From sequence record MZ065353.1: a stretch of DNA of 64,000 nucleotides; one strand, 5' to 3'. This DNA is from Escherichia virus KFS-EC3. A program made the translations under genes and the position numbers. This document shows, in pieces, positions 2,438 to 63,434 of the stretch (position 1 is the first letter of the stretch; every line of letters starts with the position of its first letter). The notes beneath the pieces were generated by a model. It did no database searches and was not told the origin of the DNA. It saw only the letters and a list, made by a program, of their open reading frames with translations.

Positions 2438-2806
2438 ATGAAAATCAATCTTAACTCATACATCAAAGGTAAAGATCACGACGGCTATAAAGCTATCGAA
2501 ACTAAAGAACTTCAGTGGCATTTATATAAAGAACAATTTGAATTCGTAGATTGTATGACTCCTGAAGGTCCTTCTGATGATTTCTCTTGGAAAATAATGT
2601 TAACTAACTTTTTTACTGGAGATACATACGAATTAAAAACTTTGATTCTTGGTAAAATTCGCTGTGAGACTTATGAAGATAAAGAAACTGGTTACTCTGA
2701 AGATGTTACGTGGTATCAAAATGGTCGTATTACCGCTGACCTCTTGATTGAAAAAATGAAAGCTAAAGGTGAATTAAATTTAGATAATTGGATTAAAGTT
2801 GCATAA
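2438..2806 (+). CDS. hypothetical early protein
   Basis: 122 aa ORF with GGAGAA RBS; no recognisable motif. Confidence 0.5.
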   Translation: MKINLNSYIKGKDHDGYKAIETKELQWHLYKEQFEFVDCMTPEGPSDDFSWKIMLTNFFTGDTYELKTLILGKIRCETYEDKETGYSEDVTWYQNGRITADLLIEKMKAKGELNLDNWIKVA

Positions 2807-2810
2807 AATA

Positions 2811-2850
2811 GTTTACTTTGGTACAGGATATGATATTATATACCTGTACC
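2811..2850 (+). promoter_or_regulatory. T4-type early promoter inside a stem-loop (PeSL-like cassette)
   Basis: GTTTAC, 17 nt, then TATTAT; inverted repeat GGTACAGG/CCTGTACC encloses the -10. Confidence 0.5.
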
Positions 2851-2876
2851 GCAATTAAACATCTCGGAGAATAAAA

Positions 2877-3242
2877 ATGAATTACATCAACTTTGAACGT
2901 AAATATGTTTCTAACGGTATTGCAGGTTCTATTGATACTATCTGCCTTTGGAAACATCAAAATGGATCAGTATGCGAAATTGAACAGTATATGACTCCTA
3001 ACTACGTTTATATGCGATTTGAAAATGGCATCACGGTTTCAATCACGAAAGAAGGTTCTTCTTTTAAAATCGCATTGGATGATGATTTTCGTCAACGCGA
3101 TTTAGGGACTCATCCTTGCTGGAATGGCGTTAATCGCAAGCTTCTGGTTAAAACTTGGATTCGTCATATTCTGAGTAACAGAGCTAAACCTGAGCATCTT
3201 GAAGCAATCTTTGATGTAGTTCTTAACGAATTTGATATTTAA
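2877..3242 (+). CDS. hypothetical early protein
   Basis: 121 aa ORF with GGAGAA RBS. Confidence 0.5.
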   Translation: MNYINFERKYVSNGIAGSIDTICLWKHQNGSVCEIEQYMTPNYVYMRFENGITVSITKEGSSFKIALDDDFRQRDLGTHPCWNGVNRKLLVKTWIRHILSNRAKPEHLEAIFDVVLNEFDI

Positions 3243-3251
3243 ATAAAATGA

Positions 3252-3265
3252 GGGGCTTCGGCCCC
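3252..3265 (+). terminator. GC-rich UUCG tetraloop hairpin
   Basis: GGGGC-TTCG-GCCCC directly after the ORF stop; weak T-run, so possibly an RNA-stability hairpin rather than a terminator. Confidence 0.4.
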
Positions 3266-3282
3266 TTACTGAGGAAAATACT

Positions 3283-3570
3283 ATGTTTATGACTACTTAT
3301 TTTGATACCCGCAAAAATTTCTGTGAAGTGGTTTTCTCTAAGGCACCTAAAGACCTTCCTGCTCATTTGCAGCCTACTAGTGAATCGATTAAAAACTATG
3401 TTAATGTAGTCTGCCCTTTAGAGTTCCGTACTGTAAATGGCCGCGATACTTTAGCTATCACTAAACTTAATCGTGAAATTGACATTGACCCTTCAATTGC
3501 GCGTGAAATTAATATTTCTGATATTGGCGGCGGTAATGTTAAATCACACGGTTTTCAGATGAGATTTTAA
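3283..3570 (+). CDS. hypothetical protein
   Basis: 95 aa ORF. Confidence 0.45.
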   Translation: MFMTTYFDTRKNFCEVVFSKAPKDLPAHLQPTSESIKNYVNVVCPLEFRTVNGRDTLAITKLNREIDIDPSIAREINISDIGGGNVKSHGFQMRF

Positions 3571-19844: not shown

Positions 19845-20087
19845 TTAAAAGCTTTCTTCTACTTCATCGTCTGAATCTTCTAATTCAGCTCTTTTTCCTG
19901 CCAAAGCATCTCTCACAGAGATGTCATCAGTATCTTTTAATTCAGTTTCTTTAACTCTTTTCTTATAATAAGCTTCAAGTTCTTCTAGACCTTCTAATGT
20001 TTGGCAAGAGGCAATTTTACCCATAAATTCATCAATAGAAGCTTCATAAAGAAATTGTTTAAATTCTAGTAACATCTTTTTCTCCAA
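19845..20087 (-). CDS. UvsW.1-like small acidic protein
   Basis: 80 aa ORF directly downstream of uvsW. Confidence 0.6.
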   Translation of the reverse strand: MEKKMLLEFKQFLYEASIDEFMGKIASCQTLEGLEELEAYYKKRVKETELKDTDDISVRDALAGKRAELEDSDDEVEESF

Positions 20088-20100
20088 AGGGCCGAAGCCC

Positions 20101-20793
20101 TTATAAATTAACTGTTTTTCTAAGTATTCTTAGTTTGTACATTGATAATCCAGTAGCTTTAGAAGCATCTTTCATACATTTATACTTAACACCATTTACT
20201 TCTATAGGTTTAGCAGCTGGGTTATTAGCTCCTGAATTATCTGGCATATTATCTTTAATTTTCTGAATAGATTTAGCGGAATGTTTCCTTCCATACATGC
20301 CATTATTTTTACCTGATTGATTGATAGAATGCAATCTTTTAGCTTCTTCAGTCCATTTTGTTGGGTTCATTCTTTTAGTTTTACTAATTTTACTTCCCCA
20401 TGTAATTGGACGATTTTTCATGAGTTTTGACATATATTGTTTATGTTCTTCCGTATGGTGTTTTCCGTAAAATGGATTACCTTCACCTGATTGAAGTTCT
20501 GCCATTTTACGACGTTCCCAGGCGTAAGATTTATTAACGTGTCTTTCATGAGTCTTTGAATTCATCCCCATACATATAACGGCTTTAATTATACCGTAAT
20601 GGTTTGGATGAATTTTAGCTAAAAGTTTATGAGCTATAAAATGCTCTTCAGCTGTTAGTTCTACCAAATTACACTTATCATCTGTACCGCCCATACATCT
20701 AGGAATTATATGATGAGTTTCAGTGTATCCATTAAGGCGAGCCCGATTCTGGGCTCTATTAATTAAATTATCGTATATTAATTTATAATTCAA
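20101..20793 (-). CDS. free-standing HNH homing endonuclease
   Basis: 230 aa; HHIIPRCMGG...NLVELTAEEHFIAHK; paralog of the ORF at 57928-58602. Confidence 0.75.
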   Translation of the reverse strand: MNYKLIYDNLINRAQNRARLNGYTETHHIIPRCMGGTDDKCNLVELTAEEHFIAHKLLAKIHPNHYGIIKAVICMGMNSKTHERHVNKSYAWERRKMAELQSGEGNPFYGKHHTEEHKQYMSKLMKNRPITWGSKISKTKRMNPTKWTEEAKRLHSINQSGKNNGMYGRKHSAKSIQKIKDNMPDNSGANNPAAKPIEVNGVKYKCMKDASKATGLSMYKLRILRKTVNL

Positions 20794-22298
20794 AGTTTAA
20801 CCTCTTTCATCACATAATTAAACTTCTCATCAGCATAACGCTGAATACGATCAAGTCCATGTTTTAAAAGATAGTTTAAATGCGAGTATTTTTTAGAAGA
20901 TGTTTTTGATTTAGAAACTACGCCCGCGTCATCTATGAGGTCCCAGACCGTTGCGATTGTTTTAGAACCATGCTTACGTAATACGCGACCTATTGTTTGC
21001 AATACAATAATTTTAGATTTAACACCGTGTGCTAAAACAACGTGATGCAGATTTTTAACTGAAATGCCAGTAGAAAATACACCATAACTAGCTACTATAA
21101 TTATTCCTTTACCGTTTTCAGCTAAGGTTTTCATTATATTGCGGGTTTCGGTATCAACTTCCCCTGATACGTAATAAACTTTATCGTATTCATTTTTAAT
21201 TAAATCGAAAATAGCTTTACCATGTGATACATGCTTAAACATGACAAAAGCGTTTTCATCTTTTTGCGCAAGCTTAATAGCTAATTTAGCGATCCATTTA
21301 TTTCTTTTACTGAGTCCAGTAATAATTTTTATTTCTTCTTGGTAAGTTTTTCCCTTTAATTTAGTAGTGAACTCATCGGGATAGCGAAGAAAAATACTAT
21401 TAATTTTTAACTCAGTTACTTGTCCATCTTCCATTAATTTAGAAGTCGTTACTGGCTTAAATATTTCACCGAACATTCCAACATACTGCATGATATTAGC
21501 TTTGCCATCACGTAATGAACCAGACAAACCGAATTTGAACATGCAGTTATTTAAACCTGATATGATAGATGAAATACTTTTTCCTGTGGCAAGATGGCAT
21601 TCATCATTCATCATCATTCCAAACTGTGAGAACCATTCTTTCGGTTGTTTTACTACAGTTTGCCATGTACCAACAACGACTGGTGCATCATTTTTATATT
21701 TATCATCTTTTGATGCTCCACCGCCGATTTTCTTTATCATTGCATGACTGAATAAACGATAGTCAACAAAGTCATCAGCCATCTGAGTTGTCAGAGCAGT
21801 TGTTGGAACAATGATAAGAATTTTACCTTCATAATTTTCCAAATAATAACGTGCAAGCAAAGCTTGAATTAAGGATTTACCTGCAGATGTTGGAAGATTA
21901 AGAATTCTACGACGATTAACTAATCCTTCGAACACTGCATCTTTTTGATACCAATGCGGTTCAATTCTTTTATTTCCTGAATAGATTTCTAATTTAGAAA
22001 GCCATTCATCAAAATCTTTTCTTGATAATTCTTCTTTTTCGTTAATCTGTGGGTCAATCCAGGCTTTATAGCCAAAGTTATCACAGAACTTTTTAATTTG
22101 CCCGACTAAGCCGAATGGAAGAAGACGATTATAATCTAAAAGACGGATTCGTCCATCCCAGTTGCCATATCTGAAGCGAGGATTAAACCTATATCCATCG
22201 GCCTCAAACGAAAAGAAATCTCTTAATTCGTGGAACGTGCTCTCTTCACAATCGATGCGTACATGACTGAAGTCGTGAAAATGTACTTTAATATCCAT
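20790..22298 (-). CDS. uvsW: DNA/RNA helicase UvsW
   Basis: 502 aa; Walker A (NLPTSAGKS) and DECH box. Confidence 0.85.
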   Translation of the reverse strand: MDIKVHFHDFSHVRIDCEESTFHELRDFFSFEADGYRFNPRFRYGNWDGRIRLLDYNRLLPFGLVGQIKKFCDNFGYKAWIDPQINEKEELSRKDFDEWLSKLEIYSGNKRIEPHWYQKDAVFEGLVNRRRILNLPTSAGKSLIQALLARYYLENYEGKILIIVPTTALTTQMADDFVDYRLFSHAMIKKIGGGASKDDKYKNDAPVVVGTWQTVVKQPKEWFSQFGMMMNDECHLATGKSISSIISGLNNCMFKFGLSGSLRDGKANIMQYVGMFGEIFKPVTTSKLMEDGQVTELKINSIFLRYPDEFTTKLKGKTYQEEIKIITGLSKRNKWIAKLAIKLAQKDENAFVMFKHVSHGKAIFDLIKNEYDKVYYVSGEVDTETRNIMKTLAENGKGIIIVASYGVFSTGISVKNLHHVVLAHGVKSKIIVLQTIGRVLRKHGSKTIATVWDLIDDAGVVSKSKTSSKKYSHLNYLLKHGLDRIQRYADEKFNYVMKEVKL

Positions 22299-22300
22299 AA

Positions 22301-22918
22301 TTATGCCTTACTAAATTTGCCTTTAGAATCTCTTTTCATGAGACGACCTTTAATAAATCCGTCGGGAATAATACCGTCTGGTTGTATTAATTTATTTATT
22401 GCGCCATTATTGACCCAAAAAGTTCCTGTTGTAGTCGGTTTGACTTTACATCCTTTTCTGGACTTTCTATTAGGATGAACCATCCCTTTTACAAATCCTT
22501 CTGGAACAAGTTCTCCAGGCTTAATAAAAATATTTTTAGTTCCATTAGTGTAACAAGTTGTACCTAATACCGTGCCCGGTGAGTTTTCAAATCTCTTAGC
22601 GGAAGATTCTTTCATCTTTGCTATAACCTCTGTAGTCATAACAATTCCACCAATTCCACCAGGTTTCATATTATAATAATTTTTGCTTTTTATCAGTTCA
22701 GGAGTTATAATTTCTTCTTCATACATGTACGCTTCTTCGGAAGTTTTAAACTCTTTTAGTATTTTTCTAGAGAAATTGTTTTCACCATATTTCTTTATAG
22801 CCTGCTGAATTGCCTTACCGGAACCAAGGTAGCCATCATTCAGGTCGTCAGTAGAGTGCTTTCCTATATACTTTTTACCATTTATTAGATTTGTTGTTTC
22901 GTATACAAAGTGGTACAT
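22301..22918 (-). CDS. GIY-YIG homing endonuclease (segD-like by position)
   Basis: 205 aa; N-terminal FVY...YIGKH GIY-YIG module. Confidence 0.75.
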   Translation of the reverse strand: MYHFVYETTNLINGKKYIGKHSTDDLNDGYLGSGKAIQQAIKKYGENNFSRKILKEFKTSEEAYMYEEEIITPELIKSKNYYNMKPGGIGGIVMTTEVIAKMKESSAKRFENSPGTVLGTTCYTNGTKNIFIKPGELVPEGFVKGMVHPNRKSRKGCKVKPTTTGTFWVNNGAINKLIQPDGIIPDGFIKGRLMKRDSKGKFSKA

Positions 22919-22967
22919 ACTATTTTCCGAGTAATAAATATATCTATATTTATACTGAGGAAATATT

Positions 22968-57119: not shown

Positions 57120-57946
57120 TGGCTATTTTTCAAATAATTAATGAAAGCACTCCCCAAGTTCCAAAGGTTAAGCAATCATTAAACGAAAAGAAATGGATTC
57201 AGATAGGTCTTGAATACAAAAAGGCCAAAGCAAAAGGAATGACAGGAAAGCAATTTGCTGAAGAAAGAGGAATCAAATACTCTACGTTTACTTCAGCAAT
57301 GTCAAAATATGCTTCAGGAATTAAAACAGCTGAAAAGATTCAAAAGCTTGAATCAAAACCAATGAATAAACTCAATAAGCAAGAAAGACAACTGCTTATG
57401 ATAAATTCATTCAGGCAAACGTTGCGTGATAAAATTCGTAATGAAGGTGCAGCAATTAATAATAAAACCAGAAAGTGGTTTGCTGAAACTATTAAGCAGG
57501 TAAAAGGACATAAAGTTGTTCGCCCGCAGCCGGGACGAATATATGCTTTTGCTTATGATGCTAAACACAAGGAAACTCTTCCTTATTGGGATAAATTTCC
57601 TTTGATAATTTACCTCGGTTTAGGTAAACACAATTTAATGTACGGATTGAACTTGCACTATATTCCACCTAAAGCTCGTCAGCAATTTCTAGAAGAGCTT
57701 TTAAAGCAATATTCAAATACACCTACTATTACTAATAAAACGAAATTAAAAATTGATTGGAGTCAAGTGAAAGGATTTAGGGGTGCAGACCAAATGATTA
57801 AGGCATATATACCTGGTAATATTATGGGTAGCCCTGTTGAAATCGCCCCGAAAGACTGGGCGAACGTTGTGTTAATGCCACTCCAAAGCTTCTACTCCAA
57901 AGGAAAACGTTTCTCTGCAAACAAAGTTTGGAGCAATGTACGATGA
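57119..57946 (+). CDS. 2: DNA end protector protein gp2
   Basis: 275 aa (T4 gp2 is about 274). Confidence 0.8.
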
Positions 57947-58602
57947 ATTATGAAAAAATTTATAATTCACTAATTGATAGGGCTCGCAATAGAGCCCTTA
58001 CTGGATATAAAGAAAGACATCATATTATTCCGAAATGTTTAGGCGGTAGTAATGATGCTTCTAACTTGGTTGATTTAACTCCAGAAGAGCATTATGTTGC
58101 ACATCAGCTATTAGTAAAAATACACCCAAATTCTTTAAAATTATCTTATGCAGCCATAAAAATGACGGTTTCAACTAAATATGTTAGGAGAAATAATAAA
58201 GTTTATGGTTGGTTAAAAAGAAAACATGCAAATAATATTTCAAATACACAAACTGGACGAAAATATTATAATAATGGTAAAAGATGTATAAAATTACATG
58301 ATGGAGATATAATTCCTGGGGGATTTATTTTAGGAAGAGGATGGAGTCCGACACAAGGAACAACTCATTCTAGAAAAAATGACACGTTTAAAAACAAAAA
58401 GCTTCAATCTGCTTTAGCTAATAAACGGTGGGAAAAAGAAAAGAAAATAATGTTAGATAACTTTGGAGTTAACACTATTGATGAAGCAAAGAAAATTGTT
58501 CTTGATTTTAAATCAACTTGTCATCCAAGATATTGGCGAAAGCCAACTTTAGAAAAATTTCCATTTATGACTTCTGCTCGTTTAAGAAGTCTAATAAATT
58601 AA
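57928..58602 (+). CDS. free-standing HNH homing endonuclease inserted between genes 2 and 3
   Basis: 224 aa; [10 protein letters not shown]...[15 protein letters not shown]; N-terminal half closely parallels the ORF at 20101-20793; overlaps the gp2 3' end by 19 nt. Confidence 0.75.
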
Positions 58603-62862: not shown

Positions 62863-62935
62863 TGGGAATTAGCCAAGTTGGTAAGGCACTGGATTTTGAT
62901 TCCAGGATGCAAAGGTTCGAGTCCTTTATTCCCAG
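62863..62935 (+). tRNA. tRNA-Gln (anticodon UUG)
   Basis: hand-folded cloverleaf: acceptor TGGGAAT/ATTCCCA, anticodon loop TTTTGAT, T-arm AAAGG-TTCGAGT-CCTTT. Confidence 0.75.
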
Positions 62936-62936
62936 C

Positions 62937-63023
62937 GCGAGAATGGTCAAATTGGTAAAGGCACAGCACTTAAAATGCTGCGGAATGATTTCCTTGTGGG
63001 TTCGAGTCCCACTTCTCGTACCA
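62937..63023 (+). tRNA. tRNA-Leu (anticodon UAA)
   Basis: acceptor GCGAGAA/TTCTCGT, anticodon loop CTTAAAA, long variable arm, encoded CCA. Confidence 0.75.
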
Positions 63024-63029
63024 AAGTTT

Positions 63030-63101
<72 letters not shown>

Positions 63102-63113
63102 AAATTTAATTTA

Positions 63114-63187
63114 CTCCGTGTAGCTCAGTTTGGTAGAGCGTCTGCTTTGGGAGCAGAATGTCGTAGGTTCAAATCCTGCCGCGGAGA
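63114..63187 (+). tRNA. tRNA-Pro (anticodon UGG)
   Basis: acceptor CTCCGTG/CGCGGAG, anticodon stem TCTGC/GCAGA, loop TTTGGGA. Confidence 0.75.
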
Positions 63188-63189
63188 CT

Positions 63190-63276
63190 GGAGGCGTGGC
63201 AGAGTGGTTTAATGCACCGGTCTTGAAAACCGGCAGTCGCTCCGGCGACTCATAGGTTCAAATCCTATCGCCTCCG
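63190..63276 (+). tRNA. tRNA-Ser (anticodon UGA)
   Basis: acceptor GGAGGCG/CGCCTCC, anticodon loop CTTGAAA, long variable arm. Confidence 0.75.
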
Positions 63277-63283
63277 TAATTTC

Positions 63284-63356
63284 GCTGATTTAGCTCAGTA
63301 GGTAGAGCACCTCACTTGTAATGAGGACGTCGGCGGTTCGATTCCGTCAATCAGCA
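63284..63356 (+). tRNA. tRNA-Thr (anticodon UGU)
   Basis: acceptor GCTGATT/AATCAGC, anticodon stem CCTCA/TGAGG, loop CTTGTAA. Confidence 0.75.
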
Positions 63357-63362
63357 TATCAA

Positions 63363-63434
63363 GGCCCTGTAGCTGGAAGGTTCAAGCAAGCGACTCATAA
63401 TCGCCAGATGGTGGTTCAATTCCACCCAGGGCCA
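63363..63434 (+). tRNA. tRNA with CAU anticodon (Ile-type by T4 analogy, or Met)
   Basis: acceptor GGCCCTG/CAGGGCC, anticodon loop CTCATAA, T-arm GGTGG-TTCAATT-CCACC. Confidence 0.7.

Follow-up and report, generated by a model that had tools for sequence, protein, structure and literature searches.

The uvsW Locus and the Inserted Gene

The window, by which the whole analysed stretch of 64,000 nucleotides from Escherichia virus KFS-EC3 (MZ065353.1) is meant, is a T4-like (Tequatrovirus) segment running in the reverse of the T4 map orientation, with Shigella phage SH-1 as its closest match over 24 kb (97.9%). On its minus strand the helicase gene uvsW and the small gene uvsW.1 are separated by an open reading frame (ORF) that is oriented like both neighbours. 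The earlier note had placed the ORF there and taken T4 to have no gene at this position; the Pfam assignments of both flanks and the comparison with T4, which has no gene between uvsW and uvsW.1, bear this out. The features of the locus are as follows.

20790..22298, minus strand: uvsW helicase, the host gene with the invaded 3' end (Pfam UvsW_N 8e-44, ResIII, Helicase_C)
19845..20075, minus strand: uvsW.1, the downstream neighbour, 76 aa (Pfam UvsW-1 1.7e-30; 100% identical to T4)
20101..20793, minus strand: HNH homing-endonuclease ORF at the uvsW site, 230 aa (ORF call; PHROG 655)
approximately 20500-20793, minus strand: HNH catalytic domain of this ORF, about residues 1-98
residues 99-230 of this ORF: DNA-binding half with two NUMOD3 motifs and a C-terminal I-TevI-like helix-turn-helix
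20116..20804, minus strand: inserted cassette, 689 bp, delimited by alignment with the empty sites of T4, L006, L007 and L010
20790..20807, minus strand: substitute uvsW tail AAA GAG GTT AAA CTT TGA (KEVKL-stop), supplied by the cassette; the T4 tail is KTVNL-stop
20801-20804, minus strand: Shine-Dalgarno sequence GAGG of the HNH gene, inside the substitute tail
20790-20793, minus strand: TTGA, the HNH start overlapping the new uvsW stop
20101..20118, minus strand: native uvsW tail and stop AAA ACA GTT AAT TTA TAA, now forming the final five codons and the stop of the HNH ORF
20739..20756, minus strand: hairpin inside the HNH ORF, GAGCCC-AGAAUC-GGGCUC, ORF nt 38-55
20089..20100, minus strand: hairpin GGGCUUCGGCCC between the HNH stop and the ribosome-binding site of uvsW.1, native host sequence outside the insert
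20805..20930, minus strand: HNH-linked divergent block at the uvsW 3' end, differing from T4 by 36 substitutions over about 125 bp
20805-20880, minus strand: proximal ~75 bp of the block, with 11 changes (10 synonymous)

The cassette interrupts uvsW five codons ahead of its stop, after ATG AAA, and its boundary can slide by the shared AAA. The helicase gene is closed by the substitute tail at one end of the insert, while the displaced native tail at the other end serves as the end of the HNH ORF. Among the empty sites, L006 and L007 have exactly this native tail and L010 has one base different; the T4 record differs at the native uvsW stop, which is a known sequencing error. The hairpin at 20089..20100 is likewise identical at the L006 and L007 empty sites and, apart from the same error, in the T4 record. 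The cassette leaves this hairpin and the ribosome-binding site of uvsW.1 intact, and uvsW.1 itself is unchanged relative to genomes without the HNH gene.

In phage Aeh1, mobE leaves nrdA in pieces. At the present locus, an origin of the uvsW/uvsW.1 split from the HNH gene was considered and rejected, as the split is present in every examined locus that lacks the gene. The two genes are split in T4 and in five relatives without the uvsW-site HNH (PMC1524935), and the single fused uvsW of 587 aa in the T4 RefSeq record results from a sequencing error in the GC hairpin between uvsW and uvsW.1 (PMC6486255; PMC1524935).

The Protein and Its Conservation

The sole possible start of the ORF is the TTG at 20793-20791, since the frame is closed by a TAA only two codons further upstream, and beginning at M34, the first ATG in the frame, would cost the protein its conserved N-terminus. 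A good ribosome-binding site, GAGG, stands 7 nt before the TTG, and TTG is the start in the window, T6, ZN18, G8 and PSD2002 alike.

The whole protein matches the 'homing endonuclease' family PHROG 655 with an E-value of 1.6e-61; a second HNH protein of the window, encoded between genes 2 and 3, matches the same family with 6.5e-59. The catalytic domain scores 16.8 bits against Pfam HNH as a single sequence, under the cut-off of 21.4. A profile of 51 homologous sequences matches the HNH domain of McrA (E=0.0019), and also matches a group II maturase and Cas8-HNH. Among these 51 homologues H27/H28, N42, H51 and H55 are invariant or nearly so, and H28, N42, H51 and H55 can be read, from their conservation, as the His...Asn...His catalytic and metal-binding residues of the HNH superfamily. 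An AF2 model (mean pLDDT 87) places a strand-strand-helix core at residues 25-61. Whole-chain structure searches give weak matches, including GVE2 HNH, I-HmuI and Cas8-HNH.

The second half of the protein carries known DNA-binding modules. NUMOD3 is found in two stretches (7.7e-14, 51.8 bits against a cut-off of 20.4), and residues ~148-225 match the DNA-binding domain of I-TevI (1I3J) with E=0.006 as a single sequence and 9e-7 as a profile; the same domain is the top Foldseek match (probability 0.99). The Pfam I-TevI_DNA-bd model scores 14.7 bits, under its cut-off of 27. I-TevI shares only this module, a NUMOD3-type motif with a helix-turn-helix, since its catalytic domain is of the GIY-YIG and not the HNH type, and unlike I-TevI the present gene has no intron. 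I-HmuI and I-TevIII also differ from it in lying inside group I introns, and no direct PDB sequence match to either was found, the similarity being too weak. A scan of the window at Rfam gathering thresholds returned seven tRNAs only and no group I intron; since the ORF also abuts two protein-coding genes, it is free-standing and not intron-encoded.

Between the window and T6 copies there are 18 synonymous and 5 non-synonymous differences (dN/dS 0.06), with similar values in both halves of the protein, which points to strong purifying selection. That the gene is a decaying, inactive relic whose frame merely happens to be open might be suspected from the non-ATG start, the internal hairpin and the sub-threshold Pfam HNH score. 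This is scarcely credible when the catalytic residues are all intact and invariant among the homologues, the low dN/dS extends over both halves, the TTG is conserved together with its GAGG and the ORF is of full length in the carrier copies examined. Possibly decayed copies are seen in UFV-AREG1, with an entry of 146 aa, and BF15, with a match in two pieces.

The Internal Hairpin and Expression

Upstream of the ORF on its own strand, the first exact match to the late-promoter consensus comes only at 22947-22954, ahead of segE. Within the ORF, the hairpin at nt 38-55 also occurs in the gene 2/3 ORF of the window with its arms swapped (GAGCCC/GGGCUC at uvsW, GGGCUC/GAGCCC at gene 2/3). Roth16, PSD2002, Rgz1 and RB6 mobE have a hairpin of different sequence at the same place, and the relative in AbTZA1 has none there. 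Measured against synonymous shuffles, the hairpin at uvsW is weak (z=-1.4) and those of its relatives are stronger, with z from -2.3 to -4.8 in five of seven members from T4-like phages. The hairpin as a feature of the whole family was rejected: 71 distinct metagenomic relatives give a mean z of -0.39 for nt 22-84 (p=0.098), a region that in these sequences is less structured than the regions downstream. It is confined to members from T4-like phages. T4 mobE has a mapped internal terminator at the same place (PMC2790892). The TTG start and the hairpin together imply low expression of the uvsW-site gene.

A Sister Element at Gene 2/3 and the Relationship to MobE

The second HNH gene of the window stands on the other strand, at the junction of genes 2 and 3.

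57943..58602, plus strand: gene 2/3 HNH homing endonuclease, 219 aa
57943-57946, plus strand: ATGA, overlap of the HNH start with the gene 2 stop
57980-57997, plus strand: hairpin inside the gene 2/3 HNH ORF
57874..57946, plus strand: recoded, divergent 3' end of gene 2 (alignment with T4)

The earlier note had given this ORF as 57928-58602, in keeping with the ORF list, which begins it at a TTG; the start supported by homology is the ATG at 57943. The note's observation that the two ORFs share an N-terminal half and differ in their C-terminal halves survives proper alignment: BLASTP finds 54 identities in 98 residues (55%, E=4e-34) with the alignment ending at residue 98, past which no significant similarity between the two proteins was found. 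A tblastn search of the whole window with either protein revealed no HNH copies beyond these two. The C-terminal half at gene 2/3 lacks NUMOD3 and has one copy of the motif 'NNG..IIPxGFxxG', of which SegE has two (E=1e-4) and which also occurs in RB6 MobE.

The two elements have the same design. Relative to T4 the gene 2/3 insert is ~660 bp long, and its ORF ends at the position of the T4 gene 2 stop, just as the uvsW-site ORF ends at the native stop of its host gene. In both, a recoded host-gene tail makes the ribosome-binding site of the HNH gene; at gene 2 the tail WSNI-stop becomes WSNVR-stop and a change of TCA to AGC creates GGAG. Both have a 4-nt start/stop overlap, a hairpin at nt 38-55 and a divergent block in the upstream gene only. 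The gene 2/3 copy differs in its unrelated C-terminal half, its ATG start and its independent assortment, and by these comparisons it would be a sister element with a different DNA-binding half.

T4 MobE, encoded between nrdA and nrdB, is promoterless, overlaps the nrdA stop and has an internal hairpin terminator (PMC2790892); it makes a strand-specific nick in the allele without mobE (PMC2790892; PMC2988022). The uvsW-site gene resembles it in the homologous N-terminal HNH domain, in being free-standing and in the orientation of its neighbours, in having no promoter of its own on the available evidence, in the overlap of its start with the upstream stop, in the GC-rich hairpin ~30-55 nt into the ORF and in its patchy occurrence among T-even phages. 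The two differ in their site (nrdA/nrdB and the uvsW tail), in their unrelated C-terminal halves and in their start codons (ATG in mobE, TTG here). The linked polymorphism lies in the upstream gene at uvsW, whereas the target of MobE is in the downstream gene nrdB, and the uvsW-site hairpin, unlike that of mobE, has no clear U-tract.

Over the N-terminal 100 residues the two window proteins are 56% identical to each other and 52-54% identical to MobE; the uvsW-site protein and RB6 MobE share 54% over 98 aa, or 47.8% over 124 aa by tblastn. The three can thus be regarded as roughly equidistant members of a T-even 'Mob-like' family, in which the uvsW-site protein would be an ordinary relative of T4 MobE and a single catalytic head looks to be combined with interchangeable DNA-binding modules. 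The idea that one copy recently duplicated or moved inside this genome is rejected: either copy is about as near to MobE as to the other, and other phage lineages hold relatives of both, each at its own site. The active spread with target-site diversification that the earlier note read from the two copies therefore holds as an old family history, probably driven by exchange of the C-terminal DNA-binding module, and not as recent spread within the genome.

Distribution and Linked Polymorphism

The insert at uvsW is found in 48 of 742 matching phage records, including T6, ACG-C40, HY03, PST and W143, and 48 records have a protein at least 95% identical to the uvsW-site HNH. About 500 of the 742 are at 90% identity or more, and about 10% of these close relatives carry the insert. 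Clean empty sites are present in T4, L006, L007, L010, LH2 and OES_C-2. The gene 2/3 insert occurs in 36 of 511 matching records, so that neither site is occupied in all relatives. The locus at uvsW can be described as a presence/absence polymorphism at a fixed position with a clean empty site, a character of Mob-type genes. T6 and ZN18 have the uvsW copy without the gene 2/3 copy, and both copies occur together in four records (KMB39, ESh30 and two of HY03) among the 30 gene 2/3 carriers listed; the two copies assort independently.

Carriage at uvsW is accompanied by a difference in the flanking coding sequence. All carriers examined (the window, T6, ZN18 and G8) share the block of 36 substitutions at 20805..20930 relative to T4, L006 and L007, whereas on the downstream side, in uvsW.1, carriers show essentially no difference from the same three genomes. 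Megablast with the block retrieves 48 records at 95% identity or more, which match the carriers among the names listed. Four further records match at ~91.5% and have no uvsW-site HNH (LH2, OES_C-1, OES_C-2 and OES_C-3); the two that were inspected are recombinants with a carrier-type distal half and T4-type sequence in the proximal ~75 bp. The proximal part of the block is thus perfectly linked to the HNH gene in this sample. At the 11 proximal positions, carriers from other lineages lean 17:6 toward the carrier-type state and non-carriers from other lineages do not (13:22), which is suggestive only. A requirement of the distal non-synonymous stretch (VVSKSKTSS) for carriage is rejected, both because carriers from other lineages are T4-like there and because the four Tequatrovirus records without the HNH have it. 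At gene 2 the 3' block also falls into two allele classes, with 52 records at 95% identity or more and 448 at 83-87%, and ~16 records have the variant block without the HNH gene.

On these alignments the block at 20805..20930 is a candidate for a co-conversion tract and target-immunity region. It could also be simply foreign DNA that was carried along with the cassette, which need not give immunity.

The strong purifying selection on the protein might suggest that the nuclease has been domesticated and is kept for a benefit to the phage, for example the partial exclusion of T-even competitors with a sensitive uvsW, with mobility a secondary matter. T4 homing endonucleases do add to the partial exclusion of T2 (reviews; PMC2993671). 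Such a role does not conflict with homing, as one and the same cleavage shows itself at the population level in the exclusion of flanking markers, and the retention of the gene by only ~10% of close relatives (48 of ~500 at 90% identity or more) argues against a large general benefit. We regard domestication as quite improbable.

segE at the 5' End of uvsW

The opposite end of uvsW is bordered by a second homing endonuclease gene.

22301..22918, minus strand: segE, GIY-YIG homing endonuclease (Pfam SegE_GIY-YIG)

The target gene of SegE is uvsW (PMC2988022, Table 1). segE is present in the window, T4 and T6 and absent in ZN18, G8, L006 and L007, and the first ~150 bp of uvsW are dimorphic in step with it, the last four genomes having an alternative 5' block. 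T4 SegE and the uvsW-site HNH are alike in being free-standing, associated with uvsW and linked to a divergent block inside it; SegE differs in its catalytic family, in lying at the opposite end of uvsW and in having been characterised experimentally. Within 2.2 kb all four combinations of the two genes occur, with both in the window and T6, segE only in T4, the HNH without segE in ZN18 and G8, and neither in L006 and L007, implying recombination within this distance.

Relatives in Other Phage Lineages

The identical position at the end of uvsW holds a full-length orthologue, with a 4-nt overlap, in Klebsiella phage Roth16 (69% identity), Escherichia phage PSD2002 (59%) and Morganella phage Rgz1 (56%), and Acinetobacter phage AbTZA1 has an N-terminal relative after uvsW. 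Relatives at the gene 2/3 site are found in Serratia phages X20 and SP1 and in Acinetobacter phage AC4. Each of the two window copies thus belongs to an old lineage of its own that keeps to one site and has members in further phage genera. The uvsW of PSD2002 is much more divergent, and this phage has the same kind of substitute tail (MKEVQI-stop) and TTG start, while its ORF ends in the native tail of its own lineage, MKQVDL-stop, as at the L011 empty site. A cassette-type tail at one end and the recipient's own tail at the other are as predicted if one site was invaded in differing backgrounds.

A patchy distribution would by itself also fit an ancient gene that has been lost repeatedly. The gene could be an old resident that is inherited vertically and no longer spreading, its distribution being the result of deletions. 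The same-site orthologues diverge about as UvsW does (56-69% for the HNH, ~77% for UvsW in Roth16), and some copies appear truncated, which fits this view. Against it, the empty sites have a clean native tail and a T4-type proximal block and show no scar of a deletion in carrier-type sequence. The combination of substitute and own native tail in PSD2002 is expected for the invasion of a different background, and the four segE/HNH combinations within 2.2 kb and the dN/dS of 0.06 also speak against a resident that is merely being lost. Vertical inheritance with loss is, on balance, an unlikely explanation.

Proposed Mechanism of Homing

The evidence favours, with a probability of roughly 0.8, a Mob-type HNH homing endonuclease that is free-standing and rides on a cassette of ~0.7 kb in the 3' end of uvsW. 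The characters of the Mob type are found together here, as far as alignments can tell: an N-terminus homologous to MobE, a free-standing gene, expression signals in the upstream gene and a linked flank polymorphism. In T6 and in dozens of further GenBank records the gene already bears the annotation 'homing endonuclease', and a review of 2010 puts the number of mob-like HNH genes in T6 at three but does not describe them (PMC2993671). A literature search found no paper on the uvsW-site element or its target, and no cleavage, nicking or inheritance experiment.

For this homing endonuclease the following course of events may be proposed. The gene would probably share the uvsW transcript and be translated only weakly, coupled to the termination of uvsW translation. 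When a carrier and a phage without the gene infect the same cell, the protein would bind DNA through the NUMOD3 motifs and the I-TevI-like module of its C-terminal half and nick or cut the sensitive uvsW allele upstream of the insertion point, no more than ~125 bp from it. The cut is predicted upstream of the insert and not in uvsW.1 because the linked block lies upstream only. Recombination-dependent repair would then copy into the recipient both the cassette and the variant uvsW sequence next to it. The 3' block that marks all examined carriers would be the resulting co-conversion tract, and it probably makes the carriers' own site uncuttable. Any spread today would take place by site-specific homing when phages co-infect a cell, as inferred from the combination of presence/absence and linked flank polymorphism.

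A wider generalization is tentative, and we put it at somewhat short of even odds. It holds that a 'tail-swap' cassette design is common to the Mob-like genes of T4-like phages and allows a single element to home to one and the same gene end in different genera. Such a cassette would enter a few codons before a conserved host-gene stop, bring its own recoded codons in which a ribosome-binding site and an overlapping start are embedded, and read out through the native tail and stop of the recipient. A GC-rich hairpin at ORF nt ~32-55, the positional homologue of the mobE terminator, would act as a brake on expression. If this is true, the uvsW-tail lineage is one element in at least four Tevenvirinae-type backgrounds, namely those of Tequatrovirus, Klebsiella, Morganella and PSD2002-type phages.

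Conclusions

The uvsW-site and gene 2/3 genes do not overturn the current understanding of phage homing endonucleases. They add two clean examples to the small set in which the design of the insertion can be read base by base, and they give a testable prediction, that the target lies within ~125 bp of the uvsW 3' end in T4 and T2. The helicase gene is bracketed by SegE at its 5' end and the HNH at its 3' end, each linked to its own variant coding block. The uvsW locus may thus be a convenient natural system for the study of mosaic boundaries made by such elements inside essential or conserved phage genes.

Endonucleases flanking uvsW

The 5' end of uvsW is dimorphic over its first ~150 bp and adjoins a second homing-endonuclease gene, segE.

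22149-22298, dimorphic 5' stretch of uvsW
22301-22918, minus strand, segE

The two uvsW 5' alleles differ at 12-16 positions per 50 bp and track segE, with one allele and segE present in the window, T4 and T6, and the other allele, with segE absent, in ZN18, G8 and two relatives without the HNH endonuclease gene at the uvsW 3' end, the uvsW copy (L006 and L007). uvsW thus lies between two homing-endonuclease genes, segE and the uvsW copy, and a separate variant block is linked to each of them.

In the T4 RefSeq record (NC_000866.4; locus L001, 1178-2941), uvsW and uvsW.1 are still annotated as a single CDS of 587 aa. At a place where relatives have TTTATAAGGGCTTCGGCCC, this record has TTTA-ATAAGCTTCGGCCC; the discrepancy is a previously published sequencing error in a GC hairpin (PMC1524935, PMC6486255).

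A different HNH gene directly follows uvsW in Acinetobacter phage AbTZA1, where no uvsW.1 was annotated or detected beyond it.

AbTZA1 locus (L004) 2501-3292, HNH gene, 263 aa, directly 3' of uvsW

It overlaps uvsW by 4 nt, and its protein is related to that of the uvsW copy at the N-terminus and unrelated to it in the C-terminal half.

The gene 2/3 site and a common motif

The 3' end of gene 2 also has a variant block, upstream of the paralogous HNH gene, the gene 2/3 copy.

57874-57946, variant block at the gene-2 3' end
57943-58602, aa 92-132 of the gene 2/3 HNH protein, motif region
62863-63434, plus strand, seven-gene cluster of the T4-type tRNA region

At the 3' end of gene 2 there are two classes of allele: identity to the window is at least 95% in 52 records and 83-87% in 448. 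As the gene 2/3 endonuclease is present in only 36 records, about 16 phages have the variant block but lack the gene, either because their alleles are immune or because they derive from carriers by loss. OP870145 (F26) is an example of the phage records concerned.

A short motif, NNG..(I/L)IPxGFxxG, is common to the gene 2/3 HNH protein, SegE, which has two copies, and the 243-aa long form of RB6 MobE, which has it at the C-terminus. This common motif points to a putative DNA-binding module swapped between GIY-YIG and HNH endonucleases.

A hairpin within the endonuclease genes

Mob-like endonuclease genes of T4-like phages contain a GC-rich hairpin inside the ORF at nt ~32-55, the position at which an internal terminator has been mapped in T4 mobE.

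20739-20756, minus strand, hairpin in the uvsW copy
57980-57997, plus strand, hairpin in the gene 2/3 copy
L003, L022, L024 and L106 (RB6 mobE), hairpin in other phages

The arm sequences vary from gene to gene and are swapped between the uvsW and gene 2/3 copies. Synonymous shuffling gave z = -2.3 to -4.8 in five copies and -1.4 in the uvsW copy. The AbTZA1 gene is without the hairpin, which is no general trait among 71 metagenomic relatives.

Recombinants at the uvsW 3' end

Phages LH2 and OES_C-2 are recombinants at the uvsW 3' end without the endonuclease gene. The distal half of their uvsW block is of the carrier type, the proximal half is of the T4 type and the empty site is clean. To map the recognition site, these naturally occurring alleles would be useful substrates.
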